This document shows, piece by piece, positions 34,468 to 40,764 of a stretch of 64,000 nt of DNA (positions within the stretch are counted from its first letter, which is position 1; every line of letters starts with the position of its first letter). The notes below the pieces were generated by a model that saw only the letters and a program-made list of their open reading frames with translations, had not been told where the DNA came from and searched no databases. This stretch comes from Escherichia phage MiataMamis. Position numbers and translations under genes: made by a program. The DNA lies in sequence record PP925834.1; one strand, given 5' to 3'.

Positions 34468-35652
34468 TTAAGCTTTAGCCAAAATGGCGCTAAACTCTTC
34501 ACCAAACTCTTTTACAATCTTCATCAGGTTTGGGTATGCTTTGATCAGCTGAGCAACAATCTTGTCACGACCTTTACCGATAAGCAAGGCATTTCCTAAG
34601 GCATTAGGTTTCATCATCGCCATAAAGACCGAGAATACAAAATCTCGGTTCTCGTCCTTGAAGTTTTCCCAAAGGAAATCGAGGAAGTTTGCCACACAGC
34701 TAACAAGATCTTCGTCGGAGATACTTGCATTTTCCATCATATTACGAATAGCGATACAGCCTTCAGATCCAAGAATCCACAAGATGTCTGGCTGTTTAGG
34801 ACCTACATATTCTTTGCAACCTCCTGCCATAATCCGACCGATTTCCGGTAAGTTGCGTTTCTTGGTGTGGTAAGTCCAGATCTCTACCGCTGCAGTGTGA
34901 CCAATAGCACCTTGCAGAAGAACACGGGCCATAGCGTCAGAAATAATACCGCTGTCAAAATCGTGCAAGATATCAGATGCAGCAACCCAAGATCGCGGTG
35001 TGGCAAAAGATGGACAATTAATCTCAGCCATGGCCTCATAATTATCGATAGCTGATGGAACTCTTTTCAGATATCCAATTACAGATGAGTGCACCCCATT
35101 AAGGAATGCGTAGTCCTCAATAAACACCTCTGCATTGCTTGTAACTTCTACAATGATAAAACGGTTAGCCAGAGGGGCTTCGAGCGCCGAAAGAACCGCA
35201 CCATCTGTAGAACGGTTACCAGCAGCCACAAAAACAGAACCCTTAGGGAATGCATAGGTACCGCACTTGTGGTCGAGCATAATTTGCATTGCAACCTTTT
35301 GCAGGTAGTTATCTGCATGAGTGAGCTCATCCAGAAAGATAATTCCGCTCCAGTCAGGATCCGCAGGCCAAAATTCTGGAATTGCAAATACTGTACGTGT
35401 AGTTCCATCCGCTTCTACAGGGATAGGTAGCCCAGATAAGTCGGCAGGATCTTTATCTGACAGTCGCACGTCAACCAGGTTGTCATCTCGCTCACCGAAC
35501 ATATTGTCGGCGATCTGCTTCATCACCTGGCTCTTTCCCACGCCCATTGGTCCTAAAATCAGGACAGATCGGTTATGACGCTGGGCAAACTGAATGATAG
35601 CTGGCAACTCACGGACAGTGATTTGACCACTTTCAAATACGTTTCTTGACAT
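34468..35652 (-). CDS. AAA+ ATPase, MoxR/CobS-like
   Basis: Walker A LILGPMGVGKSQ; Walker B-like IIFLDELTHAD; size about 390 aa. Confidence 0.8.
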   Translation of the reverse strand: MSRNVFESGQITVRELPAIIQFAQRHNRSVLILGPMGVGKSQVMKQIADNMFGERDDNLVDVRLSDKDPADLSGLPIPVEADGTTRTVFAIPEFWPADPDWSGIIFLDELTHADNYLQKVAMQIMLDHKCGTYAFPKGSVFVAAGNRSTDGAVLSALEAPLANRFIIVEVTSNAEVFIEDYAFLNGVHSSVIGYLKRVPSAIDNYEAMAEINCPSFATPRSWVAASDILHDFDSGIISDAMARVLLQGAIGHTAAVEIWTYHTKKRNLPEIGRIMAGGCKEYVGPKQPDILWILGSEGCIAIRNMMENASISDEDLVSCVANFLDFLWENFKDENRDFVFSVFMAMMKPNALGNALLIGKGRDKIVAQLIKAYPNLMKIVKEFGEEFSAILAKA

Positions 35653-35921
35653 TAGTAAAAGTCCTCTACTTGTGTGTAAGTGTTTTCAAAGTTTTCCAAA
35701 ACAGATATCACATCGGATCTGTCAATATCATACGTGACTCTCCAGTTGTACGCAACCCTTTCTGCTGTTGCCTCTTCTGGCGATAGTCGTCTGCTGGCAT
35801 AAAAGAGTGTTGGAGTACACTTTCTTGCTTGCCCTCTAACTTTCCCATAATAATATCTGTGAATATCTTTGTCAAAATTTAACTCTTTTTCTGCACGAAG
35901 TTCATATTGCTGGTATAACAT
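35652..35921 (-). CDS. hypothetical protein (89 aa)
   Basis: ORF-track ORF. Confidence 0.6.
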   Translation of the reverse strand: MLYQQYELRAEKELNFDKDIHRYYYGKVRGQARKCTPTLFYASRRLSPEEATAERVAYNWRVTYDIDRSDVISVLENFENTYTQVEDFY

Positions 35922-35965
35922 CTCTACTACTCCTTAAGCAGCATCCTTGCCGCCATTCCTGCCCA

Positions 35966-36346
35966 CTAAAATGCAGTCCGAATCCAGACAAGGTTCTTAT
36001 CTGCCCAATCATAGAGGCAAGTCATTGCACTATTGAATTGCTCACACGGAGGATAATCTTCTTCCATCTGGCGCATAGCAGAGCCTTGTGGGTAAAGCTC
36101 CCGTGCTGCAAACCACGCGTCGTAGTCATCAACGGTGTCGAAGTAGTATACAACATCCTCCAACTCAGGATCGAACTTTGAACTATCAGGATCCAGTTGT
36201 TCAGGGAACTTGGAGCGTAGCTTACCAGCCACAATACTTGCCAACTCGCTAACATGCTTATTGTCCCACTCCACTAGCTTCCCGTCTTCAGTGATGCGTC
36301 CTAACCACTGATCATGAAGGTCAACTGTTGTCTTCCACTGAGCCAT
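35966..36346 (-). CDS. hypothetical protein (126 aa)
   Basis: ORF-track ORF. Confidence 0.65.
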   Translation of the reverse strand: MAQWKTTVDLHDQWLGRITEDGKLVEWDNKHVSELASIVAGKLRSKFPEQLDPDSSKFDPELEDVVYYFDTVDDYDAWFAARELYPQGSAMRQMEEDYPPCEQFNSAMTCLYDWADKNLVWIRTAF

Positions 36347-36348
36347 TA

Positions 36349-39270: not shown

Positions 39271-39274
39271 TGAC

Positions 39275-39291
39275 AGGGGCCAATGGCCCCT
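39275..39291 (+). other. perfect 17-bp palindrome AGGGGCCAATGGCCCCT between two plus-strand genes
   Basis: Overlaps the ORF-track start 39283; possible RNA hairpin or attenuator upstream of ATG 39304. Confidence 0.4.
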
Positions 39292-39303
39292 TCTGGAGTT
39301 TTA

Positions 39304-40764
39304 ATGGATAGCAGAAGTTCAGAAATCATTGCCTCACAGAAAGATGATGCCTTGAGAATGTTGCAGGCTGCACGTATGTATCTCCTTGAAAAGCTGCCGT
39401 TTTATGGCACACTACTGTCAGGGTTGCAGTTCGTAGAAAACCACACATGGTGCTCCACCATGGCAACCGACCATAAACGCATCTATTACAGTCCTGAGTT
39501 CATTATGGGATTGGCTGATGAACGCAAGGCTATTCTTAAGGCTTCTCTAACTGACGAGCAGTTTGAGATGGCTGAAGTTTTCTATTCCCCAAAATCTGTG
39601 AAAGAGGTGGCCTTCCTTCTGTCACATGAGGTGGGGCATATTATCTGTGATCACCTAGTCCGTGGTAAAAGCTTTGAGCCGGAACTGTTCAATATTGCTT
39701 GTGATCACGTTATCAACACAGGTCTTGTGGTTGACTTTAGCAAGCCTCCTTGTGTTTTCTTCCCGAAGGGGAAAAGCACTACGTTCGTGAAAGGTAAACC
39801 TTTTGGCTTCTTAGCCAGCTGCTACTGCGATATGAAGTTTCATGGATGGATTGCTGAGAACGTTTATGCAGTTCTTGATAAGCAAAGAGATCAGAATAAC
39901 GGTAAAAGTAAGAACGGTAAAGGTGAGAACTCTCAATGGGATAAGCGACAAACAGATGATCACATGAGTGGGAACGGTGGCACCAGTGATGATCTTGGAA
40001 AAGCTATGGGGTATGATCAGCCACAACCTGTAATCAGCCAATCTGATAAAGATCAGGCCATGCAGGACTCTGGTGATATGCTGGAGGCAGCAATGCAAGC
40101 GTCCGGAGGCCGTTGCCCTGAGGCGGTGCGTGAGTTTGTCAAGAACAGAGGTAAGCCTGTAATCAACTATATAGACATCATTAAGCAACGCATGTTGTCT
40201 AAACGAAAGGCTGAACTGACCTACAGAAAACCTGGTCGCCGATCTGGGTCTTTGACCAGCACAATGCGAAAAGTTGGGGCTATAAACAAGAACCAGCACG
40301 TTATTGTTCCTGGTCGTAATCCGGAAAACACTATAGATATTGTGGTGGCTTTAGACGTTTCTGGCTCGATCTCTCAAAGAACTTTAAAGAAAATGTTCAA
40401 TGAAATCACCGGATTGTGCAATCTGTATAAAGAGTTTAAGGTTACAATGTTCTGTTGGTCAACTGAGGTTGGAGAGGTTAAAGTATACACTCGCGGCAAC
40501 ATAGACGAGATGATTAACTATGAGGTCCACTCAACATGGGGCACAACAGCTGCTTGCGTGTTCGAGTATCTGGATGCCAACATACCGAATGCAAAAGATG
40601 TCATCGTCCTGACCGACCTATACTTTGAGCATAACTTTGAACAAAAGGCTGTTGACAACAAGTGGAAAAAGTACGATACTTTATGGGTTCTAACCGAAGG
40701 GTATAATAAAAATTATATCCCGAGCTTTGGGAAAACTGTGGAATTAATCGAGTACGCTAAGTAA
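39304..40764 (+). CDS. HExxH metallopeptidase-like plus von Willebrand factor A (vWA) domain protein (ORF-track ORF 39283..40764)
   Basis: HEVGHIICDH zinc-binding motif; vWA MIDAS-like VVALDVSGSIS; ATG at 39304 with GGAG SD. Confidence 0.75.
   Translation: MDSRSSEIIASQKDDALRMLQAARMYLLEKLPFYGTLLSGLQFVENHTWCSTMATDHKRIYYSPEFIMGLADERKAILKASLTDEQFEMAEVFYSPKSVKEVAFLLSHEVGHIICDHLVRGKSFEPELFNIACDHVINTGLVVDFSKPPCVFFPKGKSTTFVKGKPFGFLASCYCDMKFHGWIAENVYAVLDKQRDQNNGKSKNGKGENSQWDKRQTDDHMSGNGGTSDDLGKAMGYDQPQPVISQSDKDQAMQDSGDMLEAAMQASGGRCPEAVREFVKNRGKPVINYIDIIKQRMLSKRKAELTYRKPGRRSGSLTSTMRKVGAINKNQHVIVPGRNPENTIDIVVALDVSGSISQRTLKKMFNEITGLCNLYKEFKVTMFCWSTEVGEVKVYTRGNIDEMINYEVHSTWGTTAACVFEYLDANIPNAKDVIVLTDLYFEHNFEQKAVDNKWKKYDTLWVLTEGYNKNYIPSFGKTVELIEYAK

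Follow-up and report, generated by a model that had tools for sequence, protein, structure and literature searches.

The 64,000-nucleotide (nt) stretch of Escherichia phage MiataMamis analysed here (sequence record PP925834.1; hereafter, the window) encodes a MoxR-like AAA+ ATPase and, on the opposite strand, a DUF2201 protein with a zincin-like N-terminal domain and a C-terminal vWA domain (hereafter, the vWA-protease). We hold with moderate confidence that the two are the halves of a conserved MoxR-vWA machine, which the phage would use as an accessory remodeller in counter-defence. The window is that of an rV5-like Vequintavirus, and the 7-kb region around both genes shares 97-98% identity with over 100 Vequintavirus (rV5-like) genomes, e.g. 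WalterGehring, LL12, and Murica. The two genes and the motifs of the vWA-protease are located as follows.

34468-35652, minus strand: MoxR-like AAA+ ATPase of 394 residues (rV5 gp4), assigned by open reading frame (ORF), profile, fold, and alignment evidence.
39304-40764, plus strand: DUF2201 protein of 486 residues (rV5 gp12) with zincin-like DUF2201_N, a disordered linker, and a C-terminal vWA domain, assigned by Pfam, alignment, and model.
39625-39654, plus strand: HEVGHIICDH, the putative zinc-binding/catalytic motif (residues 108-117; alignment).
39904-39987, plus strand: low-complexity linker after the peptidase region (residues 201-228), predicted to be disordered (model; predicted local distance difference test (pLDDT) below 50).
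40354-40368, plus strand: DxSGS motif of the metal-ion-dependent adhesion site (MIDAS), with D351, S353, G354, and S355 (within DVSGSIS, residues 351-357; alignment and model).

Both ORFs are present as the preliminary description had given them. The ATPase carries the Walker A motif GPMGVGKS at residues 34-41 (nt 35530-35553) on the minus strand and the Walker B residues D108 and E109 (nt 35326-35331). An alignment of 23 sequences leaves the following positions invariant: G34-x2-G37-x-G39-K40-S41, D108-E109, sensor-1 N146/R147, R164, which sits within a PLANRF segment, and sensor-2 R220. The protein matches phrog_1297 ("ATPase") with an E-value of 1e-110. The NCBIfam and PADLOC searches with the single sequence gave nothing useful, and its matches to ClpB/ClpC, DpdH, and BrxF (Pfam, NCBIfam, PADLOC, and PDB phmmer) were set aside as sub-threshold, uninformative P-loop similarities. 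Hence, profile and fold searches were needed.

Relatives of the ATPase with about 360 residues share 33-36% identity with it over about 85% of the query (phmmer E about 1e-45). All nine such relatives in the alignment match AAA_5 and AAA_3, and three of the nine match bpMoxR, whereas all 14 Vequintavirinae-type members miss AAA_5 and AAA_3. The Pfam membership of the ATPase in MoxR is thus by transitive homology only. The best PDB match to the profile of the 23-sequence alignment is the Midasin AAA modules (E = 1.6e-9), and the nearest solved folds to the ATPase model are CbbQ and NorQ, at 17-19% sequence identity. Read from the secondary-structure string only, the model places a hairpin (residues 75-90) after strand 2 and before the Walker B strand, and around residues 129-135 there are short strands that precede the sensor-1 strand. 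Judged from its fold and its relatives, the product of 34468-35652 is a divergent MoxR-type ATPase.

The vWA-protease contains both Pfam domains in N-to-C order and above the gathering thresholds, namely DUF2201_N (PF13203; 99.1 bits against a cut-off of 23.2, E = 4e-28, residues 96-321) and DUF2201 (PF09967; 43.6 bits against a cut-off of 26.4, E = 4e-11, residues 353-488). It also matches phrog_1314 (E = 1e-122). The hidden Markov model (HMM) family check proposed in the preliminary description thus came out divided: the DUF2201 partner passes Pfam, but the ATPase misses the AAA_3 and AAA_5 cut-offs and is assigned to MoxR by fold and relatives. The HEVGHIICDH and DVSGSIS motifs, which had been picked out earlier, are conserved at their key residues. 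Across 23 homologues, with identity down to 21%, H108, E109, H112, H117, R120, and D134 are invariant, and the MIDAS is complete, with invariant D351, S353, S355, T414, and D438. The C-terminal half of the model (pLDDT 80) adopts a vWA fold with Z of about 12-12.7 to integrin I-domains, and the MIDAS domains of NorD and Midasin are further fold matches. In profile searches the N-terminal domain weakly resembles the minigluzincin MJ1213 (E = 0.011) and two M48 proteases, BepA and HtpX, and phmmer of the whole protein against PDB sequences gave no matches. From its motifs, the protein is a putative protease. Its start is placed at 39304, with a GGAG ribosome-binding site at 39296-39299; the ATG at 39283 was rejected, as it has no ribosome-binding site and lies within the loop of a hairpin at 39275-39291.

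The MoxR ATPase and the DUF2201 vWA family are a tightly linked pair. Two sets of loci were inspected, a viral set of 85 loci anchored on the ATPase (80 viral contigs and five others) and a bacterial set of 80 loci anchored on the ATPase alignment, mostly from Campylobacterota chromosomes. Both genes are present in 74 of the 85 viral loci, and in 71 of these 74 the vWA gene lies directly downstream on the same strand, with gaps of -58 to 517 nt. Of the 11 viral loci without a vWA gene, ten lie on contigs that stop no more than 330 bases downstream of the ATPase gene, and the last, L036, has about 1 kb of room. In the bacterial set, 64 loci have adjacent genes and nine have the vWA gene further downstream on the same strand (73/80 in all); four are truncated, three have no partner within 6 kb, and none is divergent. 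Hence, the earlier statement that the two genes normally form an adjacent operon pair in bacteria agrees with these loci.

Named phages sampled at growing distance all carry both genes, ATPase first, with identities confirmed by HMM. The genes are adjacent in PBECO4, phiKp_21, and PhAPEC5, in the last as homologues of N4 gp24/gp25. They are separated by one small ORF in Presley and EE36phi1, and in Cassandra the vWA gene lies 2.9 kb downstream of the ATPase gene, past an inserted homing-endonuclease gene. Of the viral and named-phage loci examined, none with several kb of flank is without the partner. The two families match 744 (ATPase) and 470 (vWA) phage records spread over many phage families. 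Related phages thus keep both genes together, as the preliminary description had asked, and the independent presence and absence that it named as a counter-argument is not seen, ten of the 11 partnerless viral loci being contig ends. As an observation of its own, the bacterial loci L090-L168 (mostly Campylobacterota) have the pair among conserved genes for NifQ-like, leucine-rich-repeat-variant (LRV), ArsC-like, flavodiiron, and uncharacterised 242-residue proteins, which suggests that the pair has a metallo-cofactor or redox role in bacteria.

Different from these loci, the window has its two genes on opposite strands and divergent, with a gap of 3,651 nt, in line with the earlier report of a pair divided across a strand switch 3.6 kb apart. 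The divergent layout is found only in Vequintavirinae-type loci, i.e. the window, LL12, L006, L007 (Klebsiella phage BIS47-like), and Seunavirus SSE121. The identities of the ATPase and the vWA-protease to the window proteins are 53% and 43%, respectively, in L007, and 50% and 45%, respectively, in SSE121. The genes are still adjacent in phage A73, a deep-branching member of the Vequintavirinae (37% identity), and in the L008 lineage (35%). In lineages with adjacent genes, a SleB-like hydrolase gene is on the arm opposite the ATPase-then-vWA genes; in split lineages, the ATPase gene sits on the hydrolase/rIIA arm. One inversion comprising the promoter region and the ATPase gene, with one breakpoint between the two genes, would give the present layout. 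The operon can be split without loss of the gene pairing. The elements lying between the two genes are the following.

38151-38293, no strand assigned: divergent intergenic control region of 143 nt with back-to-back sigma-70-like promoters, predicted from sequence.
38191-38219, minus strand: predicted sigma-70-like promoter TTGACT-17-TATAGT.
38233-38261, plus strand: predicted sigma-70-like promoter TTGACA-17-TACGAT with an extended -10 TG.
35652-38150, minus strand: leftward unit of six genes (rV5 gp5-gp10) between the promoter and the ATPase gene.
38294-39270, plus strand: Srd-like 'anti-sigma factor' gene (rV5 gp11), opening the rightward unit and immediately preceding the vWA gene.

An inverted repeat, GTCAACA-N9-TGTTGAC, at 38215-38237 holds one -35 box of the divergent promoters in each arm and could be an operator coordinating both transcription units. 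The two promoter sites of 38151-38293 were predicted independently in the Gotham record, and bidirectional promoters have been reported between rV5 genes 10 and 11 (PMC3606486). As the predicted promoters stand back to back, co-regulation of the ATPase and vWA genes is plausible.

Genetic data bearing on both genes come from the HIDEN-SEQ preprint, which used a saturated transposon library of phage Bas54 (Escherichia phage MaxBurger, MZ501093) (10.1101/2025.11.20.689424). Bas54 has the gene order of the window around the pair, and both proteins are 99% identical: the ATPase matches bas54_0063 at 393 of 394 residues, and the vWA-protease matches bas54_0055 at 480 of 486. On E. coli K-12, both genes are non-essential, with 60/64 and 81/86 TA sites hit, and the true morphogenesis genes tolerate no insertions (10.1101/2025.11.20.689424). 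The comparison host is CFE311, a clinical isolate encoding DS-28, a two-gene defence system that has been validated and consists of a HEPN-family nuclease and a hypothetical protein (DefensePredictor supplement). From K-12 to CFE311, the mean count of bas54_0063 goes from 148.7 to 0.0 (log2 fold change (log2FC) -7.23, q = 0), that of bas54_0055 from 219.7 to 47.2 (log2FC -2.20, q = 0.009, a drop of about 4.6-fold), and that of bas54_0140, encoding a 99-residue hypothetical protein, from 490.3 to 10.0 (log2FC -5.48, q = 0) (10.1101/2025.11.20.689424). Deletion of bas54_0063 or bas54_0140 leads to sensitivity to cloned DS-28; the preprint treats the ATPase together with bas54_0140 and leaves bas54_0055 undiscussed despite the depletion in its own table (10.1101/2025.11.20.689424).

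Polar effects were ruled out as the source of these phenotypes, because insertions in the neighbouring genes of both operons (0056 and 0057-0062 upstream, 0053/0054 downstream of the vWA gene) are without effect; the insertions are thus non-polar. The Bas54 orthologue of the Srd-like gene (rV5 gp11) has no phenotype on CFE311, nor do insertions in the orthologues of rV5 gp5-gp10, and we therefore regard the latter genes as context and not as part of the module. The gene bas54_0140 lies outside the window and is confined to the genus Vequintavirus, with 117 records that are each at least 80% identical. The CRISPRi-ART paper, which covers the rV5-like phage EdH4, has no data on the two genes. 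In Extended Data Table 8 of the HIDEN-SEQ preprint, sheet S6, titled K-12 vs CFE303, is the same run as sheet S7 (K-12 vs CFE311), so that the table gives no CFE303 results of its own for Bas54.

On the reading that we favour, which draws an analogy to NorQ-NorD, CbbQ-CbbO, and RavA-ViaA, the ATPase would assemble into an AAA+ ring. The partner would dock on this ring, hold a target protein via its MIDAS site, and bring the zincin-type protease domain to it. The ancestral ATPase-then-vWA operon would have been disrupted when, at the base of the core Vequintavirinae, an inversion moved the ATPase gene across a bidirectional sigma-70-type promoter region, and both genes would still be read in early/mid-infection from one control region. 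The module would serve as an accessory host-interaction device and not in replication or morphogenesis, being dispensable on K-12 and needed on the DS-28 host. It would probably use ATP to remodel its target, whether or not it also cleaves it, the target being either a defence component or a phage protein that sets off the defence. The interpretation in the preliminary description is partly supported.

Several points weigh against this reading. The phenotype of the vWA-protease on the DS-28 host is far weaker than that of the ATPase (about 4.6-fold depletion versus complete loss), while a strict two-component machine should give equal phenotypes. The preprint authors pair the ATPase with bas54_0140, an unrelated protein (10.1101/2025.11.20.689424). 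For DS-28, the evidence is a single phage in a single unreviewed preprint, whose test with the cloned system was on the ATPase deletion, not the vWA gene. As the module belongs to the core genes of N4-like phages and is common in jumbo phages and bacteria, action against one E. coli system is unlikely to be its sole purpose. At the level of the proteins, the ATPase alone stays below the Pfam gathering thresholds (AAA_5 (PF07728), 16.7 bits against a cut-off of 22; AAA_3 (PF07726), unreported), and a fold search with the peptidase domain of the vWA-protease gave no placement. As the phenotypes of the two genes are unequal, partial uncoupling since the split is possible; it is also possible that only part of the vWA-protease is needed and insertions in the other half of its gene are tolerated.

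Taken further, the uncoupling would mean that the genes have been independent since the split, the ATPase countering DS-28 either by itself or together with bas54_0140, and the vWA-zincin protein having a separate, minor role. We think this unlikely, although it would fit the log2FC of -7.23 against -2.20, the different transcripts of the two genes, the authors' choice of bas54_0063 and bas54_0140 as the anti-DS-28 genes, and the genus-restricted occurrence of bas54_0140, as expected of a specificity factor. It is countered by the retention of both genes in split lineages at 43-53% identity with all catalytic and MIDAS residues intact, by the one promoter region common to both, and by the significant depletion of vWA-protease mutants on the DS-28 host with all adjacent genes unaffected. 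Moreover, among viral and named-phage loci with several kb of flank none is partnerless, which leaves over only L036 with its roughly 1 kb downstream.

A second alternative takes the pair as a virion-assembly chaperone and a processing protease, which would aid the folding or assembly of structural proteins and also trim them. Assembly chaperoning is the general role of MoxR-vWA systems, a MoxR-vWA pair has been shown to act in tail development of the archaeal virus ATV, the PBECO4 pair adjoins genes annotated as virion structural proteins, and Iyer et al. (2021) proposed such a role for the homologous jumbo-phage pair (PMC7824862). In Bas54 on K-12, however, both genes take insertions at 94% of TA sites and morphogenesis genes take none, and the phenotype depends on the defence content of the host. 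The two genes belong to sigma-70-promoter units outside the late gene block 27-66 of rV5 (PMC3606486), and neither protein has the 'MS evidence' (mass spectrometry) structural label in the rV5 gene table, which is weak negative evidence (PMC3606486). N4 gp24/gp25, too, are middle transcripts amid replication and nucleotide-metabolism genes. A morphogenesis role of the pair is hence disfavoured, and we would give it only a small chance. Smaller still is the chance that the pair matures a metal centre or cofactor of a metalloenzyme, like NorQ-NorD, CoxD-CoxE, or CobS-CobT, with HExxH binding metal and not cutting: CbbQ and NorQ are the nearest solved folds of the ATPase and the bacterial relatives sit amid NifQ-like, ArsC-like, LRV-repeat, and flavodiiron genes, but E109 of HExxH, the catalytic-glutamate position in zincins, is invariant in the alignment, no conserved metalloenzyme partner stands beside the pair in the phages examined, the phenotype is tied to the host defence system and absent on K-12, and CobS and CobT are not among the sequence or fold matches.

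The accessory counter-defence reading can be widened. The pair could be a general phage counter-immunity engine, shared by Vequintavirinae, N4-like phages (gp24/gp25), and jumbo phages, in which defence complexes, e.g. the HEPN-nuclease system DS-28, would be held at the MIDAS, taken apart at the expense of ATP, and cut by the zincin domain, with small lineage-specific proteins such as bas54_0140 serving as specificity adaptors. This is a speculative proposal to which we give rather low odds. If true, it would be the first phage AAA+ unfoldase-protease directed at bacterial immunity, and it would give a function to two long-unexplained N4-like core genes. Few phage gene pairs that lack an assigned mechanism are as widely conserved as this module, which occurs in Vequintavirinae, the N4-like core, several jumbo groups, and many uncultured viral contigs. 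Bas54, E. coli K-12, and the cloned two-gene DS-28 together offer a concrete genetic system for the function of phage MoxR-vWA-protease machines.

Both genes, their domain labels, the pair type, and the anti-defence phenotype of the ATPase are already on record. Several existing records label the ATPase gene "MoxR ATPase" and its partner "putative metallopeptidase" or "VWA-like domain containing protein". In the rV5 genome paper of 2013, gene 4 appears as "MoxR - ATPase", and gene 12 is given as a conserved hypothetical protein bearing PF13203 DUF2201_N (PMC3606486, Table S3). Added here are the explicit placing of the split Vequintavirus genes in the conserved MoxR-vWA pair, the dating of the split together with the inversion model, and the recognition that published data already contain a conditional phenotype for the vWA-protease partner. 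The original rV5 annotation split gene 12 into gp12 (441 residues) and an overlapping gp13 (81 residues) (PMC3606486, Table S3). A single intact ORF of 486 residues is present in the window, LL12, and Bas54, which makes it likely that the rV5 division reflects a sequencing error or frameshift in the reference genome.

PHROGs 1314 and 3118 carry the label 'HNH endonuclease', and as a result the vWA-protease and Srd-like genes are called 'HNH endonuclease' or 'homing endonuclease' in RefSeq/GenBank (SSE121, PBECO4, Cassandra). Other labels found on the vWA-protease are 'anti-sigma factor' and 'DNA repair ATPase'. Identification as a vWA-protease corrects this widespread database mislabelling ('HNH endonuclease', 'anti-sigma factor'). 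Aside from gene names, 16-18 unannotated MG0656xx records named 'Campylobacter phage', with C. jejuni given as host, are 97-99% identical to E. coli Vequintavirus genomes in the region of the pair, and are probably mislabelled or contaminants.

Two hairpins accompany the transcription units of the pair.

34050-34065, minus strand: terminator-like hairpin 3' of the small gene (34078-34458) that comes after the ATPase gene, also an ARNold prediction in the Gotham record.
39275-39291, plus strand: G+C-rich hairpin AGGGGCCAATGGCCCCT between the Srd-like and vWA genes.

The first is probably where a sub-unit of the leftward transcript ends, and the second may be an attenuator or an RNA-stability element. 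Directly 3' of the vWA gene are four small genes (40780-41804, plus strand) of 87, 87, 87, and 77 residues. The first two are clear tandem paralogues with 38% identity, and the other two are weakly similar (15-22%). Bas54 has one copy fewer, so the copy number varies within the genus. The gene bas54_0052 (77 residues), the counterpart of the fourth small gene, and the gene that follows it downstream, bas54_0051 (149 residues; window 41821-42270), show weak, non-significant depletion of their mutants on CFE311. In the leftward unit, the 299-residue gene at 37251-38150 (minus strand) is called 'putative alpha 1-3 fucosyltransferase' in many records; it has no Pfam match and belongs to a PHROG of unknown function, and the annotation looks unsupported.

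Further away, a 456-residue DNA helicase gene adjoining rIIB (28964-30334, minus strand) is by position and length the counterpart of bas54_0068, which on CFE311 has a log2FC of -6.32 (q = 0) and is undiscussed in the preprint (10.1101/2025.11.20.689424). The first 1.1 kb or so of the window (117-1086) aligns with part of a non-coding region of about 2.5 kb between bas54_0134 and bas54_0135. This region, whose match also reaches beyond the window start, has no tolerated transposon insertions (10.1101/2025.11.20.689424), its counterpart is marked 'non-coding' in rV5, and it may represent an origin or some other cis element that is essential.

Among the known systems, NorQ-NorD and CbbQ-CbbO have ATPases 17-19% identical to that of the window, but NorD and CbbO are without a zincin domain, and their clients, nitric oxide reductase and Rubisco, are both not encoded in the window. 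RavA-ViaA of E. coli likewise consists of a MoxR ATPase and a vWA partner whose genes share one operon; RavA has a LARA domain and binds lysine decarboxylase, and ViaA is without a peptidase domain. RavA is not among the top fold matches of the ATPase. CobS-CobT, the aerobic cobaltochelatase subunits that are also found in cyanophages, combine an AAA+ ATPase of the same broad clade with a vWA partner, whereas the partner in the window has the DUF2201_N and DUF2201 architecture; for this reason, and as no CobS or CobT is among the matches, identity with CobS/CobT was rejected.

Closer are the phage pairs. N4 gp24 and gp25 are two of the 14 core genes of N4-like phages and middle transcripts, gp24 being listed as unknown and gp25 only as 'vWFA domain' (PMC4193335). 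They form a homologous pair in Schitoviridae with the ATPase gene first (tblastn) and with about 22-27% identity to the window proteins; in N4-like phages the genes are adjacent or one small ORF apart, on one strand, amid RNA polymerase II and nucleotide-metabolism genes. From group 2.2 jumbo phages, Iyer et al. (2021, Viruses 13:63) described a MoxR ATPase together with a vWA protein fused to an N-terminal metallopeptidase and suggested that the two take part in the assembly and processing of virions (the examples given are ASV44729.1 and ASV44728.2) (PMC7824862). That role is at odds with the Bas54 data. The window genes differ from the jumbo-phage pair in lying 3.6 kb apart on opposite strands of a 137-kb non-jumbo myovirus, but the two-protein architecture is the same, and the window proteins match the adjacent pair of PBECO4, K64-1, phiKp_21, and GAP32 (tblastn).

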